20,000 bases of DNA from Dehalococcoidia bacterium (GTDB lineage: Bacteria; Chloroflexota; Dehalococcoidia; DSTF01; JACRBR01): NCBI GenBank assembly GCA_041494685.1, contig JBGQBE010000003.1, positions 45,641 to 65,640 of the forward strand, in the 5' to 3' direction. The notes under the pieces were generated by a model that did not search any database, had not been told where the DNA came from, and saw only the letters and a list, made by a program, of their open reading frames with translations. The translations under genes and the position numbers were made by a program. Shown here in pieces: positions 7,629 to 14,213 of the stretch (its first letter is position 1; each line of letters opens with the position of its first letter).

Positions 7629-8603
7629 ATGGCGCGAGCGTACACCCGCGACCCGCTGCACCCGTTGGTCGAGGGGTTGTTCCAGGCGATCTTCGGCACA
7701 CGCCCGGCCGAGCGCGTGATGGAGGCGGACGTGCTGCGAGCCAGCGACCCGCTGACCGCGGCGATGTTCAACATCGGCGCCCCAACGCTTCCGGTCGAGC
7801 GCGAAATCACGATCCCGGGGCCCGCGGGCGACCTGCGTGCACTGGTGTTCGCGCCGCAGGAGGCGGGCGGCGCGCCACTGCCCGTCGTGGTGTACTTCCA
7901 CGGCGGCGGTTTCGTGATCATGACGCCGGAATCGTCAGCGAAGATCGCGAAGCGCATAGCCCAGAACGCCGGTGCGGTCGTCGTCAGTATCGACTACCGG
8001 CGCGCGCCGGAAGCCTCGTACCCGGCACCGCTGGACGATTGCATCGCGGCGTTCCGCTGGGTGCGCGCGCACGCGGCGTCGCTTGGCGGCGACCCGTCGA
8101 GGGTGGCGGTCGGCGGGGAATCGGCCGGGGGCAATCTCGCCGCAGCGACCGTGCTGCGGGTGCTGGCCGACGGAGACGCGCCGCCGGCCGCGGCGGTGCT
8201 GATGTGCGCGTGGCTGGACCTCCAAATGGATTCGCCGTCGTTTCGTGCGTTCGGCCCGACGGACGCGCTGATCGACGACGTCGTGATGACGTACTGGCGC
8301 GACTGCTACACCGACGATCCGGCCGTGTGGGCGAACCCGCTGGCGAGCCCGCTGCGCGGCGACCTGTCGGCGTTTCCTCCGGCGTGCGTGCTGGCGGGCG
8401 GCATCGACCCGCTGTGCGACGAAGACGTGCAGTTTGCGGAGAAGCTGAGGGCGGCGGGGCGCGACGTCGAGTTGCACGAGTACGCCGGCATGCCGCACAT
8501 CTGGAGCTTCTTCCCGCAGCTCGACGGTGTCACCGACGTCGACGCGCGCATCGGCGCGTTCCTGCGGCGCGTCTTCGGCAGCGAGGCGATCCTTCCGGAG
8601 TAG
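7629..8603 (+). CDS. Hormone-sensitive-lipase-family (family IV) alpha/beta hydrolase/esterase
   Basis: HGGGF oxyanion motif, IDYRRAPE..YPAPLDD, GESAGG nucleophile, DPLCDE and GMPH. Starts 3 nt after the previous stop. Confidence 0.93.
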   Translation: MARAYTRDPLHPLVEGLFQAIFGTRPAERVMEADVLRASDPLTAAMFNIGAPTLPVEREITIPGPAGDLRALVFAPQEAGGAPLPVVVYFHGGGFVIMTPESSAKIAKRIAQNAGAVVVSIDYRRAPEASYPAPLDDCIAAFRWVRAHAASLGGDPSRVAVGGESAGGNLAAATVLRVLADGDAPPAAAVLMCAWLDLQMDSPSFRAFGPTDALIDDVVMTYWRDCYTDDPAVWANPLASPLRGDLSAFPPACVLAGGIDPLCDEDVQFAEKLRAAGRDVELHEYAGMPHIWSFFPQLDGVTDVDARIGAFLRRVFGSEAILPE

Positions 8604-8606
8604 GAC

Positions 8607-10814
8607 TTACGGCGCGGGCGCGGTGCGGCGGCCGTCGATCTGGCGGTTCACCGTGATGACGCCGCGTACCGACTCCAGCTTCGCCATCATCCGGCTCAAC
8701 TGCGCCACGCCGCTGGTCTCCAGCGTGAGATAGACGGACGTCGTGCGGTCGTCCAGGTGCTCGGTGCGCACGCCCATCATGTTCACCTTCTCGTCGGACA
8801 CGAGCGTCGAGATATCGCGGAGCAGGCCGACGCGATCCCACGCCTCGATGTGCACGGCTACGGGATACATATCGCCCGTGCGGCCCCACTCTACGTCGAC
8901 GAGGCGGTCCTGCTCGTCCTCGTGCAGGACGTTGTGGCAGTCGGCGCGGTGGATGGTGACGCCGCGGCTGCGTGTGATGTAGCCCATGATGCGGTCGCCG
9001 GGGACGGGGTTACAGCAGCGAGCGATCTGCGTGAGCATGTCGCCGGTACCGAGGACCTGCACGGTCTGGCTCTGCAGGCGGCGCTGGTGGCCGCCGGCCG
9101 CCGGCAGCGCCGGCTCATCGTCCTTGTGGATCAGCGGCGCCAGTCGCAACGCGATGTGCGTTGTGGTAATGCCGCCGTAACCGAGGGCGGCGAGGAAGTC
9201 GTCGAGGGCGTCGTACTTGAAGATCTTGAGGAGGTCTTCCTGGCACTCGTGCAGGGCGAGGTTGAGACGGCGCAGCTCCTTGTCGATGATCTCGCGCCCG
9301 CGCTCGATGTTCTCGGCGCGCTCCTGCTTCTTGAACCACTGGCGGATCTTGTCGCGGGAGTGGCCGGTCTTCACGTAGCCGAGGTTGGGGTTCAGCCAGT
9401 CGCGCGACGGGCCGCGCGTCGGCTTGCCTGCCAGGATCTCGACGACGTCGCCGTTCTGGAGCTGGTAGGTCAGCGGCACGAGGCGGCCGTTGATCTTGCC
9501 GCCGACGCAGCGGTGGCCGAGTTCTGTGTGGACGCGGTACGCGAAGTCGATGGGCGTGGCGCCGGCGGGCATCTCCTTGATCTCGCCCTTGGGCGTGTAG
9601 ATGAAGACCTGGTCGCGGAAGAGGTCGTTCTTCACGGACTCGACGAACTCTTCGGCAGCGGGCATCTCGCGCTGCCATTCGATGAGCTGGCGCAGCCACG
9701 ACATGCGCTCCTCGTAGCGCACGTCGCGCGGCGACGCGCCCTCCTTGTAGCGCCAGTGCGCGGCCACGCCGTACTCCGAGAGCTGGTGCATCTCCTGCGT
9801 CCGGATCTGTACCTCGAGCGGGCGCGCGCCGATCGCCATGACCGTCGTGTGCAGCGACTGGTAGAGGCTCTCTTTGGGGCTGGCGATGTAGTCGTCGAAC
9901 TGGCCGGGGATGGGGTGCCAGAGGCCGTGCACGACGCCGAGTGCGTTGTAGCAGTCGCCGATCGTGCCGACGACGACGCGGATGGCCAGCAAGTCGTAAA
10001 TCTGCTCGAAGGTCTTGTGCTCGGCGGCGTACTTCTCGGCCTTCTGGGCGATCGAGTAGATATGCTTGGCGCGGCCCTTCACCTCTGCCTCGATGCCGTT
10101 CTTGCGCAGCTCTTCCTTCAGGATCTTCTCGACCTGCGCGATGTAGCGCTCGCGCACGGTGCGCTTCGACTGGATGAGCCGGGCGATCTGCTTGTAGCGC
10201 TCCGGCTCCAGGTGGCGGAACGCGAGGTCTTCGAGTTCCCACTTGATCTGCCAGATGCCCAGCCGGTTGGCGAGCGGGGCGTAGATCTCCATCGTCTCTT
10301 GCGCCGTGCGCAGGCGCTTCTCGGGCGGCTTGGCGTCGAGCGTGCGCATGTTGTGGAGGCGGTCGGCGAGCTTGATGATGACGACGCGCGGGTCCTCCGC
10401 CATCGCCAGGAACATCTTGCGCAGGTTCTCCGCCTGGATGCTCTGGTCGCCCGGCCGCTCCGCGGGCGCGCGCCAGGTGATCTTCTCGAGCTTCGTCGCT
10501 CCGTCTACGAGTTTGGCGACTTCTGCGCCGAAGCGCTTCTTGATCTCGTCGTTGGAGACGCCGCAGTCCTCCTGCACGTCGTGCAGCAAGGCGGCAGCGA
10601 TGGCGCCGGAGTCGAGCTGGAGGCCGGCGACGGTAATCGCGGCGTCGAGCGGGTGGATGATGTAGGGCTCGCCGGTCAGCCGCTTCTGGCCTTCGTGCGC
10701 GCGCGCCGCGAACTCGTACGCCTCTTCGATCAGGCGGATGCGCTCCTGCGGCAGGTAGGCGGCAGCCTTCTCGAGCAGGGGCTGGATCGTGGGCTCAGAG
10801 GCGAGGGTGGTCAT
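8607..10814 (-). CDS. rel: Long RSH (p)ppGpp synthetase/hydrolase Rel
   Basis: HD domain (AHEGQKR..GEPYIIHP, LLHDVQED, KLADRLHNMRTL), synthetase (GRAKH, DLLAIR, DDYIA, YQSLHT, EVQIRT), TGS (YTPKGE, TPIDFAY), ZFD (ARCCNPVPGD, IHRADC) and ACT (DRVGLLRD). Confidence 0.96.
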   Translation of the reverse strand: MTTLASEPTIQPLLEKAAAYLPQERIRLIEEAYEFAARAHEGQKRLTGEPYIIHPLDAAITVAGLQLDSGAIAAALLHDVQEDCGVSNDEIKKRFGAEVAKLVDGATKLEKITWRAPAERPGDQSIQAENLRKMFLAMAEDPRVVIIKLADRLHNMRTLDAKPPEKRLRTAQETMEIYAPLANRLGIWQIKWELEDLAFRHLEPERYKQIARLIQSKRTVRERYIAQVEKILKEELRKNGIEAEVKGRAKHIYSIAQKAEKYAAEHKTFEQIYDLLAIRVVVGTIGDCYNALGVVHGLWHPIPGQFDDYIASPKESLYQSLHTTVMAIGARPLEVQIRTQEMHQLSEYGVAAHWRYKEGASPRDVRYEERMSWLRQLIEWQREMPAAEEFVESVKNDLFRDQVFIYTPKGEIKEMPAGATPIDFAYRVHTELGHRCVGGKINGRLVPLTYQLQNGDVVEILAGKPTRGPSRDWLNPNLGYVKTGHSRDKIRQWFKKQERAENIERGREIIDKELRRLNLALHECQEDLLKIFKYDALDDFLAALGYGGITTTHIALRLAPLIHKDDEPALPAAGGHQRRLQSQTVQVLGTGDMLTQIARCCNPVPGDRIMGYITRSRGVTIHRADCHNVLHEDEQDRLVDVEWGRTGDMYPVAVHIEAWDRVGLLRDISTLVSDEKVNMMGVRTEHLDDRTTSVYLTLETSGVAQLSRMMAKLESVRGVITVNRQIDGRRTAPAP

Positions 10815-10834
10815 GCTGCTCCGTCATTGAGGCG

Positions 10835-11092
10835 CTACTGGCGCGCCGCGGCGTCCTTCGTCAGTCCCAACTCTTCGAGAATCTTCTCGACGGGCGTGCC
10901 GCCTTGCCGGGCGTAGCCCTTCATGCGGGCGCGCATCAGGATCGTGTCGTGCTCCTCGGCGCTGGCCTCGAACATGATCTGGAGGGCGTCGGCGACCAGG
11001 TCCTTGGCAGGGCGGTGCGAGCGAGCGGCCGCGACCTTCAGGGTCGTGTAGAGCTCCTCGTCGTCGAACACGATGGTCATGCGCCGGGTCAT
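10835..11092 (-). CDS. Small ribbon-helix-helix DNA-binding protein with an antitoxin-like C-terminus (85 aa)
   Basis: Likely start MTRRMTIVFDDEELY at 11092 with SD GAGAGG. Alternating beta strand RMTIVF, helix DEELYTTLKVAAARS, helix AKDLVADALQIMFE and tail GGTPVEKILEELGL. Ends 20 nt before rel. Confidence 0.75.
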   Translation of the reverse strand: MTRRMTIVFDDEELYTTLKVAAARSHRPAKDLVADALQIMFEASAEEHDTILMRARMKGYARQGGTPVEKILEELGLTKDAAARQ

Positions 11093-11114
11093 ACGGGTAC
11101 CCCTCTCTTCGGCC

Positions 11115-11163
11115 ACGCACTTGACGCCTGTACGCTTGGGCGTACGTACGCCTGAGTGTATCA
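11115..11163 (-). promoter_or_regulatory. Promoter/operator of the RHH-rel operon: extended -10 TGaTACACT (11163-11155) plus an ACGC repeat array and palindrome GGCGTACGTACGCC (11139-11152)
   Basis: ACGC at 11115, 11124, 11132 and 11148 with inverted GCGT at 11140 (8-9 bp period). A perfect 14-bp palindrome spans the predicted start site. Confidence 0.6.
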
Positions 11164-11193
11164 CGGCAGCCGTTCGCCTCGTCTGAACCCGGC

Positions 11194-11202
11194 TGGTATC
11201 CT
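11194..11202 (+). promoter_or_regulatory. Extended -10 element TGgTATCCT of hisS
   Basis: TGn-TAnnnT 9 nt before the hisS ATG, with no SD. Confidence 0.5.
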
Positions 11203-11211
11203 GCCGGACGC

Positions 11212-12495
11212 ATGAGCGAGTCTGAGAAGGCCGGAAAACCACAGAAATTCGCCGCCCCCCGCGGGATTGCCGACGTCCTGCCGGACGAATGGCCGTACTG
11301 GCAGTACGTCCGCGACACGGCCGAGCGGGTCTGCGGCCTGTTCGGCTACCACCGCATCGAGACGCCGACGTTCGAGCACGCGGGGGTTTATTTGCGCACG
11401 GTCGGGGCCGGCACGGACATCGTCGAGAAGGAGATGTACCTCTTCGAGGACCGCGGCGGCGGGCGGCTGGCGCTGCGGCCGGAGGGGACGGCGGGCGTCA
11501 TCCGCGCCTACATCGAGCACGGCATGGCGAGCCTGTCGCAGCCAGTCCGCCTGGCGTACGTCTCGCCGAACTTCCGATACGACCGCCCGCAGGCCGGCCG
11601 CTACCGGCAGCACACGCAGTTCGGTGTGGAGGCGATCGGCGACGGCGACCCGCTGGTCGACGCGGAGGTCATCGACCTGCTGTGGACGTTCCTGGGCGAG
11701 CTGGGGCTGCGCGACTTCATATTGAAGCTGAACACGATCGGCGACCAGGCGTGCCGCCCGGCATACATCGCCAAGCTGCGGGAGTACTACCGGCCGCACC
11801 TCGACGCGGTGTGCGCCGACTGCCGGATGCGCTTCGAGAAGAACCCGCTGCGACTGCTCGACTGCAAAGAGGAGCGCTGCCGGCCGCTGATCGCCGGCGC
11901 ACCGCGTCAGCACGACTTCCTCTGCGACGCCTGCCGCGACCACTTCGCGCGCCTGCGCGGCTACCTCGCGACGCTCGGCGTCGAATATACGATCGACGAG
12001 CAGCTGGTGCGCGGGCTGGACTACTACACGCGCACCGTCTTTGAATGCCACCCGAGGGTGGAAGGGTCGCAGAGCAGCATGGGCAGTGGCGGTCGCTACG
12101 ACGGCCTCTGCGAACTGCTGGGCGGTCCGCCGACGCCCGGCATCGGCTTCGGCGCCGGGATCGAGCGGCTGATCCTGAACATCAAGCGGCAGGAGGTTTC
12201 CGTGCCGGGGGCGACCGCCCCGGACCTGTACATCGCGCACCTGACACCGGAGGCGGCGACCGCGGCGCTGCGCATCGCGCGGGCGGTACGGGCGGCGGGG
12301 CGGCAGGCGATGGTGGGGAGCGCCGGCAAGAGCCTGAAGGCGCAGATGCGCCACGCGAACGCGCGCGGCGCGCGCTACGTGGCGATCATCGGCGCGGAGG
12401 AGATGGCCGTGGGCGAGGCGACGCTGCGGAACCTCGCGGACCACAGCGAACGCCGGGTGCGCATCGACGACCTTGGGACTGCGCTGGGCGGCTGA
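11212..12495 (+). CDS. hisS: Histidine--tRNA ligase
   Basis: PRGIADVLP, IETPTFE, TDIVEKEMY, LRPEGTAG, FRYDRPQAGRYRQHTQFGVE, LVRGLDYY, GGRYDGL, GFGAGIERL and an anticodon-binding C-terminus. Confidence 0.98.
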   Translation: MSESEKAGKPQKFAAPRGIADVLPDEWPYWQYVRDTAERVCGLFGYHRIETPTFEHAGVYLRTVGAGTDIVEKEMYLFEDRGGGRLALRPEGTAGVIRAYIEHGMASLSQPVRLAYVSPNFRYDRPQAGRYRQHTQFGVEAIGDGDPLVDAEVIDLLWTFLGELGLRDFILKLNTIGDQACRPAYIAKLREYYRPHLDAVCADCRMRFEKNPLRLLDCKEERCRPLIAGAPRQHDFLCDACRDHFARLRGYLATLGVEYTIDEQLVRGLDYYTRTVFECHPRVEGSQSSMGSGGRYDGLCELLGGPPTPGIGFGAGIERLILNIKRQEVSVPGATAPDLYIAHLTPEAATAALRIARAVRAAGRQAMVGSAGKSLKAQMRHANARGARYVAIIGAEEMAVGEATLRNLADHSERRVRIDDLGTALGG

Positions 12496-12548
12496 CAGGC
12501 AAGGCTTTGCGCTGTGATTAGCCACGGCGTGAAGCTGAGGAGCGCGAG

Positions 12549-13058
12549 ATGCCGGACATGCTGGTGAAGCTCTACGACCTGGGCGACACCCATTGCTACG
12601 ACGCGCGTGTCGCCGGGGCAGGCCTCGTGGTGCGGCGGATGGACGCGTGGGACCGCCCGGCGGTGCGGCGGTTCATCAACCAGCATTTCACCGAGAGCTG
12701 GGCGGCGGAGGCGGACTTCGCCTTCTCGCACGGCCATCCGATCACGGGGTTCGTGGCGACGAAGGACGGCGACGTCGTCGGCTTCGCCGTGTACGAGAGC
12801 AGCCGCCGCGGCTACTTCGGCCCGACGGGCGTGCGCGAGGACCTGCGTGGCAGCGGCGCCGGAGCGGCGCTGCTGTTCCGCTGCCTCGAATCGATGTGGG
12901 AGATGGGGTACGGCTATGCGATCGTCGGCTGGGTAGGGCCGGCGTCGTTCTACGAGAAGGTCTGCGGCGCCAGAATCATCCCGGACAGCGACGTGGGCGT
13001 GTACGGGCACTTGCAGCGCGAGACGCGGGAGCGGCTGTCGCGCCAGCAGCAGGCGTGA
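12549..13058 (+). CDS. GNAT family N-acetyltransferase
   Basis: VVGFAVY, FGPTGVREDLRGSGAGAALL (acetyl-CoA motif A) and FYEKVCGA. SD GAGGAG. Confidence 0.88.
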   Translation: MPDMLVKLYDLGDTHCYDARVAGAGLVVRRMDAWDRPAVRRFINQHFTESWAAEADFAFSHGHPITGFVATKDGDVVGFAVYESSRRGYFGPTGVREDLRGSGAGAALLFRCLESMWEMGYGYAIVGWVGPASFYEKVCGARIIPDSDVGVYGHLQRETRERLSRQQQA

Positions 13059-13125: not shown

Positions 13126-13136
13126 TGTGTGTGACG

Positions 13137-14213
13137 ATGTTTGACCGGCTGGAAGCAACAGAACAGCGCTACGAAGACCTGACGCAGGAGCTGGCGCGCC
13201 CCGAGATATCCGGCGACTACGAGAAGTTGCAGGCGATCGCGAAGGAGCGCGCCGCCATCGAGCAGGTCGTGACGCTGTACCGCGAATGGCGCGCGAACGG
13301 CAAGGCGCTGGAGGAAGCGCGATCCGTCATCGGCGACAGCGACCCGGAGCTGGCGGCGCTGGCCAAGGAAGAGGTCGAGTCGCTGACGGCGCAGCGCGGC
13401 GACCTGGAGACGAGGCTCAAGCGCGCGCTGGTGCCGAAGGACCCGCGCGACGACCGCGACGTGATCGTCGAGATCCGGGCCGGCACGGGCGGCGACGAGG
13501 CGGCGCTCTTCGCGGCGGACCTGTTCCGCATGTACTCGCGCTACGCCGACCGGCGCCGCTGGGGCGTGGAAGTGCTGTCCGTCAACGAGATCGGCATCGG
13601 CGGCATTAAGGAAGTAGTGTTCGAGGTGCATGGCACGGGCGCGTATTCGCGGCTGAAGTACGAGAGCGGCGTGCACCGCGTCCAGCGCGTGCCGGAGACG
13701 GAGGCGCAGGGCCGCATCCACACATCGACGGCGACGGTGGCCGTGCTGCCGGAGGCGGAGGAAGTGGAGGTGCAGGTGAACGAATCGGACCTGCGGATCG
13801 ATAAGTTCCACTCCGGGGGCGCGGGCGGTCAGAACGTCAACAAAGTGGAGACGGCGATCCGCATCACGCACCTGCCGACCGGCATCGTCGTCGTGTGCCA
13901 GGACGAGCGCTCGCAGTTGAAGAACCGCACGAAGGCGATGTCCGTGCTGCGGGCGCGCCTGCTGGACCAGAGGCAGAGCGCGCAGGCGGAGGAGATCGCG
14001 GGCGCGCGGAAGCAACAGGTGGGCAGCGCCGAGCGGTCGGAGAAGATCCGGACGTACAACTTCCCCCAGGACCGGCTGACCGACCACCGCGTGGGACTGA
14101 CCACGCACAACCTGCCGCGTATCATGGACGGAGAGATCGACGACGTCATCGACGCCGTGTCGGCCGACGTGGAGGCGCGCCAGCTCGAAGCGAGTGGCGC
14201 GGAGGCACGATGA
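13137..14213 (+). CDS. prfA: Peptide chain release factor 1
   Basis: [31 protein letters not shown] (PxT RF1 motif), [18 protein letters not shown] (GGQ) and [15 protein letters not shown] at 13137; in-frame GTG alternative at 13131. Confidence 0.98.

Follow-up and report, generated by a model that had tools for sequence, protein, structure and literature searches.

Links between toxin-antitoxin (TA) modules and the stringent response have long been disputed, mostly in the form that guanosine tetra- and pentaphosphate, (p)ppGpp, act on TA modules. The E. coli antitoxin MqsA acts on rpoS and csgD, and E. coli mazEF lies directly downstream of relA (PMC4803016). In the toxSAS systems, enzymes of the RelA/SpoT homologue (RSH) family are themselves TA toxins, small synthetases being the only such toxins known (PMC7229694). 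Here we analyse a stretch of 20,000 nucleotides (nt) from a Dehalococcoidia bacterium (assembly GCA_041494685.1, contig JBGQBE010000003.1, positions 45,641 to 65,640), hereafter the window, in which a small gene predicted to encode a ribbon-helix-helix (RHH) protein of 85 amino acids (aa) immediately precedes rel, the gene of a long RSH enzyme. The small gene probably encodes an exapted RHH antitoxin of RelE/ParE type, which would have lost its toxin and now form an autorepressing operon with rel. Full-text searches of an open-access library brought up no paper that places an RHH or antitoxin-like gene at the head of a rel operon.

Synteny, fold and ancestry of the RHH protein

We scanned 41 genomes around that of the window, including the unpublished G021. 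The RHH gene is present in 14 of them (13/40 without G021), all belonging to one family (13 of 24 genomes there, against none of 16 in the order's four other families). The gene order is the same in all 14 carriers, with hisS divergent from the RHH gene and rel directly behind it. A wider scan of one genome per prokaryote species found a relative encoded at 104 loci; we kept 80 of these. All 17 loci at 55% identity or more have this hisS-RHH-rel order; they largely overlap the 14 carriers above and are not independent of them. At 37-55% identity, 63 loci have neither rel nor hisS within 3 kilobases, and in 48 of the 61 of these that were scanned the downstream ORF (open reading frame) matches the toxin family PF05016 (ParE_toxin), starting anywhere from an overlap to a few bases (0-10 nt) past the antitoxin stop. 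Among 80 loci kept from a metagenome scan, 13 are rel-linked, 56 are toxin-linked, 4 leave no room downstream and 7 are of other kinds; in none of the 80 do a toxin and rel occur together. On the 13 rel-linked metagenome contigs the RHH gene lies directly 5' of rel, and hisS is upstream in all 12 that reach that far.

Counting the window, the rel-linked set comprises 18 genome loci and these 13 metagenome contigs, at 53-93% identity. Comparison of 30 of them (17 genome loci and the 13 contigs) with toxin or Pfam queries found no adjacent toxin. Across 12 orthologous loci the RHH-rel gap measures -4 to 28 nt, and the RHH reading frame is intact in 18/18 genome loci and in 9/9 translated metagenome copies. 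The Rel protein of the window is 80-83% identical to that of nine other rel-linked loci. A protein search gave 123 relatives, from Chloroflexota or Dehalococcoidia assemblies wherever a source was named and mostly labelled hypothetical; a representative search gave 60 at E up to 0.001. In three loci (L004, L044 and L047) the matches to rel and hisS are split over several frames and the small RHH gene is intact; the broken frames are probably sequencing frameshifts in long-read bins, not pseudogenes.

Is so short a reading frame a gene at all? Its retention in 14 of 41 related genomes, together with a ratio of non-synonymous to synonymous substitution rates (dN/dS) of 0.26 over 153 pairs, indicates that it is more than a chance ORF. 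Selection is uneven along the protein, with a dN/dS of 0.12 for codons 1-42 and of 0.43 from codon 43 to the end, at a synonymous divergence (dS) of about 1.1. The 18 proteins share 29 invariant columns, including the hydrophobic positions V68, L72, L75 and L77 of the C-terminal tail.

An AlphaFold model of the protein (P0001, with 35 homologues) reaches a mean pLDDT (predicted local distance difference test) score of 79.5, with values of 82-95 over residues 1-50 and of 48-67 over the last 25. Residues 43-85 are modelled as helical, in part at low confidence. Upon structural re-alignment, residues 1-47 superpose on the RHH domains of PutA, Arc, CopG, NikR, AtaR, TacA and ParD with Z scores of 5-6.4 and root-mean-square deviations of 1.3-2.2 Å over 40-44 residues, covering the whole target domains. 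No strand is called in the monomer model, as expected where strands pair only in the dimer. The 85-aa protein, as modelled, is a protein of RHH fold. Foldseek returned no PDB match at E up to 0.001, its listing being composed mostly of RHH repressors and antitoxins. None of the Pfam RHH or antitoxin models passed its cut-off with P0001 (the best, FitA-like_RHH, scored 14.1 bits for a cut-off of 27), and NCBIfam gave no relevant match; FitA-like_RHH is matched by 25 of the 35 family members at E up to 0.1, the best at 4.1e-4. Homology to RHH proteins was reached transitively, from the profile of rel-linked proteins (A3) to that of toxin-linked proteins (A5), and from A5 to the solved RHH proteins E73 (E 7.5e-5), ParG (4.4e-4) and the ParD-like antidote 5ceg (2.5e-3).

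The first of these steps is an hhalign match between the A3 and A5 profiles over residues 1-78, with a probability of 99.9% and an E-value of 1.5e-31. In protein trees a single branch separates all rel-linked proteins from the others, with a support of 100 (18 rows) or 99 (27 rows). Four toxin-linked metagenome proteins (L161, L163, L165 and L166; 47-52% identity) join the rel-linked clade with a support of 87; they have the same type of tail as the rel-linked proteins, and PF05016 toxins are encoded next to them. This nearest toxin-linked group also has the same 8-base-pair (bp) operator unit as the rel-linked clade, the units of L165 being ACGTACAG/GCGTACAG. These relationships support the descent of the rel-linked RHH gene from a type II antitoxin of RelE/ParE toxins. 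The tail itself would be inherited from a toxin-binding antitoxin, since the nearest toxin-linked relatives carry a tail of the same type. We have not filed the protein as an antitoxin, because an adjacent toxin, the defining test of that class, is lacking.

An initial annotation of the window had anticipated much of this. Coordinates, ORFs and sequence agree with its description of an 85-aa ORF with its own Shine-Dalgarno site, 20 nt upstream of rel, with hisS divergent and no flanking toxin; no toxin-like ORF lies beside the RHH gene at the window's own locus, which was read as ORFs only. The RHH N-terminus it had recognised is backed by the fold model and the profile-profile matches, and fell short of every Pfam cut-off. 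The type II antitoxin descent it had suggested is upheld by the RelE/ParE toxins that follow the distant relatives (48/61 genome and 56/80 metagenome loci) and by the grouping of the rel-linked proteins in one clade (support 99). It had also named the outcome that would speak against it, a TA remnant lying next to rel in this genome only; the RHH-rel pair recurs in many genera, with no toxin between the two in 30 loci, and is therefore no such remnant. Its statement that the protein ends at ...EELGL was mistaken, as eight further residues follow.

Candidate promoter and operator-like repeats

In all 18 rel-linked genome loci, inspection by eye finds a -10-like box followed directly by 8-bp units that extend up to the ribosome-binding site. 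The box is of the TACAAT, TACACT or TAGAAT type, often with TGn. The toxin-linked relatives display the same layout of -10 box and 8-bp units, with units richer in A+T; an autoregulatory operator at the gene's own promoter is thus present, as a sequence feature, at rel-linked and toxin-linked loci alike. Self-match at a lag of 8 nt is 0.455 in the 18 rel-linked loci versus 0.261 after mononucleotide shuffling (z 13.4), and 0.366 versus 0.259 in the 63 toxin-linked loci (z 16.7), where echoes appear at lags 16 and 24; control regions farther upstream are flat. We counted 3-5 in-phase units, with the consensus AGGCGTAC built around a CGTA core, in 16 of the 18 rel-linked loci, versus 0-1 in controls. 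The window array contains two direct AGGCGTAC-type units, one inverted unit and two degenerate ones, and its inverted and direct units form a 14-bp palindrome at 11139-11152.

A weight-matrix scan of the 3.29-Mb genome (five phases summed, either strand) ranked the window array as the top site, with 38.6 bits versus 24.0 for the runner-up. This was the sole informative search for a regulon, hexamer-cluster counts being too noisy in this GC-rich genome. A strict chain of 8-nt regular expressions gave no match genome-wide and missed the window site itself. The 12-mer GCGTACAGGCGT has a single exact occurrence in the genome; variants with one mismatch number 21, versus 27 for a reversed control.

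Among the toxin-linked relatives (L061-L123), the residue at the position of D10 varies together with the operator. Histidine at this position (...VVFHDE...) goes with A+T-rich units of the GTATGTAA type, and aspartate or glutamate with units richer in G+C. This residue may be a determinant of specificity.

A proposed history and its rivals

In a tree of Rel proteins, all 13 usable gene-bearing rows fall within one clade of 22 rows (support 100), together with nine rows that lack the RHH gene. At least two changes in gene presence are forced on the Rel tree, and the best tree needs six. In outgroup families hisS and rel are divergent, no small ORF is present, and a -10-like box precedes rel by 20-45 nt. 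One locus within the clade that lacks the gene, L016, keeps the upstream block and the TACACT box, 12 nt before the rel ATG. The simplest history is a single insertion of an antitoxin and its operator into the rel leader, followed by loss of the toxin and, later, by repeated loss of the antitoxin. When the nine in-clade genomes without the gene were searched for RHH remnants, a match in L023 was dismissed because it lies on the wrong strand.

We propose that the ancestor of this clade, which is part of a Dehalococcoidia family, acquired a TA cassette, or the antitoxin half of one, in the short leader that separates rel from its promoter. The toxin would then have been lost, leaving the antitoxin gene, its ribosome-binding site and the 8-bp operator array, with rel as the next gene within -4 to 28 nt. 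RHH dimers would bind the AGGCGTAC-type repeats that begin right past the -10 box and repress the promoter from which the RHH gene and rel would be co-transcribed. The supply of Rel would in this way come under negative autoregulation by a small, flexible-tailed protein. The analogy with type II antitoxins suggests that rel transcription would rise once the repressor is lost, through proteolysis or through titration via its tail. Of this scheme, computation supplies the fold and descent of the protein, the strict synteny of its gene, the layout of the operator, purifying selection and the finding that the array is unique within the genome. For the repression of rel transcription, which the initial annotation had already suggested, support extends as far as anatomy: the -10 box, the 8-bp array, the gap of -4 to 28 nt and the box retained in L016.

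Several observations weigh against this proposal. The RHH gene is missing in 9 of the 22 genomes of the clade and is therefore dispensable, an accessory gene; the term 'dedicated regulator of the stringent response', used in the initial annotation, is for this reason overstated, although the genome does hold no second array of similar score. L016 represents a clean deletion of the gene. L018 keeps a 12-codon remnant of the tail (...VLQELGL) with its stop 5 nt before rel, along with degenerate 8-bp units, and what may be a decayed copy in L017 matches only weakly (33% over 57 aa; E 0.003, from 18 queries against a small database). A sigma-70 consensus scan that required both hexamers predicted no promoter between 10600 and 11400, the -10 box is our own reading of a conserved sequence, and a rel promoter might lie within the RHH coding region. 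The window array is less regular than most, with two direct units in its best phase, and the matrix that gave it 38.6 bits was derived from 62 orthologous units, two of which come from the window itself. Lastly, autorepression alone leaves the conservation of a toxin-binding type of tail unexplained.

Does the tail then have another partner? If it bound Rel, the two proteins would form a TA-like pair in which a long RSH enzyme occupies the toxin slot and is controlled post-translationally by the RHH protein, an arrangement that could coexist with transcriptional control. Rel does take the toxin's place at all 31 rel-linked loci; the four invariant hydrophobic positions of the tail are kept though no toxin is next to the gene, and the C-terminal dN/dS of 0.43 is below 1. 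RSH-family enzymes can moreover act as TA toxins, namely as toxSAS (PMC7229694). We nonetheless consider binding to Rel very unlikely. The nearest toxin-linked relatives have the same tail type in front of a RelE/ParE toxin, so that its origin requires no new partner, and Rel proteins with or without an RHH gene beside them are 78-86% identical to the window Rel, with no obvious change specific to the clade. Nine genomes of the clade keep rel without the RHH gene, hence Rel is not toxic alone, which argues against an obligate neutralisation; and the known TA toxins of this superfamily are single-domain small alarmone synthetases (SAS), not long RSH enzymes (PMC7229694). The direct RHH-Rel binding envisaged in the initial annotation found no support; the sole prediction of the complex (alignments A2 and A3; a score of 0.00 for a mark of 0.32, run without controls) yields no verdict, and we counted it neither way. 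The tail may alternatively serve against RelE/ParE toxins encoded elsewhere, in resident or incoming TA modules, making the protein an orphan antitoxin that provides anti-addiction or immunity. Its location in front of rel would then be a historical accident, or would tie rel expression to the toxin load, with the toxin as co-repressor. Orphan antitoxins are commonly reported in genome surveys, and the tail is of the type found in sister antitoxins that are paired with toxins. The genome also has one toxin of the distant relatives' partner family (contig C57; E 4.3e-24 to their profile), whose own antitoxin ends in a similar tail (...EKLGI). This resident toxin is, however, provided with that adjacent RHH antitoxin (DUF6290 model; 27% full-length identity to P0001), under a different operator of three GTGATATC units directly before the ribosome-binding site. 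Neither are the toxin family and the RHH gene associated: within the bacterial family, the toxin was found in 8 of 14 carriers of the gene versus 5 of 11 non-carriers, and none was seen in three gene-bearing genomes that are 90-97% complete (G009, G017 and G020). A free-standing immunity gene would also not be expected to keep strict synteny with rel in 31/31 loci, and we regard the orphan role as rather unlikely.

A last view holds that the gene has no function and is what remains of a decayed TA module, kept only because its deletion would upset the promoter and leader that now drive rel. Its recurrent loss in the clade (9 of 22 rows lack it; two or more changes are forced, and the best tree has six), the possible leftovers in L018 and L017, and the poor conservation of the middle of the protein in some lineages (L058-L060) are in line with such decay. 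This view is hard to reconcile with an RHH-domain dN/dS of 0.12 where synonymous divergence is close to saturation, with 29 invariant columns, with a frame intact in 18 genome loci and nine metagenome copies, or with the conservation of the Shine-Dalgarno site and of the repeat array. Besides, the clean deletion in L016, with its -10 box kept, is viable, so that hitch-hiking with a promoter would not protect the reading frame. We give the remnant a slim chance. The exapted, autorepressing antitoxin could also be extended to a bolder scheme, to which we accord little probability, in which a labile RHH protein represses the operon and its tail, in addition, clamps Rel or senses free RelE/ParE toxin as a co-repressor. 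Were this true, antitoxin turnover would directly set (p)ppGpp capacity, reversing the much-debated scheme in which ppGpp controls antitoxin degradation.

The pair on contig C57 (locus L124, 1474-1951, minus strand) is a complete module of RHH antitoxin and RelE/ParE toxin, inserted between a trpG-like gene and a trpD-like one. Its antitoxin frame (122-aa ORF) first meets a stop 148 nt inside the toxin gene, which reflects either an unusually long overlap or an assembly error.

Locus layout and comparison with known systems

The features of the locus are listed in Table 1. A terminator scan of positions 10600-11400 found no terminator-like site. Rfam models gave no match at E up to 1 over positions 8000-12800, and hence no known leader RNA such as a T-box. 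GGAGG-type sites occur at the equivalent position before the RHH gene in orthologous loci.

Table 1. Annotated features of the rel locus, in window coordinates
Feature	Position	Strand	Description
rel	8607..10814	-	735 aa, long RelA/SpoT homologue of bifunctional type; HD_4, RelA_SpoT, TGS, RelA_AH_RIS and ACT_4 domains
RHH-rel spacer	10815..10834	-	20 nt; GGAG 7 nt upstream of the rel start codon (ATG at 10814); without terminator-like site
RHH gene (P0001)	10835..11092	-	85 aa, stop TAG; residues 1-42 form the RHH domain
Shine-Dalgarno-like region of the RHH gene	11100..11110	-	Purine-rich, before the RHH ATG
Operator-like array	11113..11154	-	Five 8-bp phases
Extended -10-like box	11155..11163	-	TGn + TACACT, immediately 5' of the repeat array
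Candidate extended -10 box of hisS	11194..11202	+	TGG TATCCT, 9 nt before the hisS ATG; predicted from the sequence
hisS	11212..12495	+	Divergent from the RHH gene
Abhydrolase_3 esterase/lipase	7629..8603	+	324 aa; domain match; ordinary-looking neighbour
ORF with GGQ motif typical of peptide chain release factors	13131..14213	+	360 aa; motif read only; ordinary-looking neighbour

The hisS block and its candidate -10 box are kept across orthologous loci, including relatives without the RHH gene. In L016 and L024, rel without an RHH gene begins 5-12 nt past a -10 box. This suggests that hisS and rel of the clade may give leaderless or near-leaderless mRNAs. Elsewhere in the genome, a second match to the RelA_SpoT domain (59 bits) lies on contig C20 (45650-45970, minus strand) within an open frame of 387 codons that possibly encodes a SAS; rel is thus not the sole potential (p)ppGpp synthetase gene.

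Type II antitoxins of RelE/ParE toxins (ParD/RelB-like) are clear homologues of the RHH protein. They share with it an N-terminal RHH domain followed by a flexible helical C-terminal part, as well as a -10 box and repeated operator units before the gene. The nearest solved structures are the ParD-like antidote 5ceg by profile and AtaR, TacA, ParD and CopA by fold. The difference lies in the next gene, which encodes a long RSH enzyme of 735 aa here; none of the 31 rel-linked loci has a toxin gene in that place. The omega repressor (2bnw/1irq) and CopG/ParG have the same RHH fold (Z 5.1-5.8) and short direct and inverted operator units overlapping the transcription start region, as predicted here. 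The omega repressor reads heptads of 7 bp, whereas the unit of the predicted operator at the rel locus is of 8 bp with its CGTA core.

The comparison extends to RSH enzymes and to TA genes near them. In toxSAS, as here, an enzyme of the RelA/SpoT family is encoded beside a small antitoxin-type gene in a two-gene operon. The toxSAS enzymes are, however, single-domain small alarmone synthetases with unrelated antitoxins (PMC7229694), whereas the downstream gene here encodes a multidomain, housekeeping long Rel that is kept where the small gene has been lost. The mazEF genes provide another case of a TA-derived gene that physically adjoins the gene of a long RSH (PMC4803016); they form a complete module downstream, with promoters of their own, whereas a toxin-less antitoxin gene lies upstream here, between the promoter and rel. 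MqsA is likewise an antitoxin-type DNA-binding protein that controls a master stress-response gene, with release through loss of the antitoxin, as is proposed here. It differs in that it keeps its toxin MqsR, has another fold and acts in trans on distant promoters (PMC4803016), the toxin being lost and the target in cis at the rel locus.

Antitoxins that regulate other genes being already known, what appears to be new is the use of an exapted, toxin-less antitoxin as a cis-regulator of rel, in one clade only. Compared with the usual scheme, the wiring would be reversed and fixed in the genome, an antitoxin-derived repressor and its operator standing between the promoter and rel across a family-level clade, whose members are uncultured Dehalococcoidia. 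The path of exaptation can be read stepwise, because toxin-bearing sister forms are still recognisable. The locus would thus offer a simple case of a selfish two-gene module pared down to the cis-regulator of a core stress gene, and would suggest that control of rel at the level of transcription, commonly regarded as minor, can be specific to a lineage.

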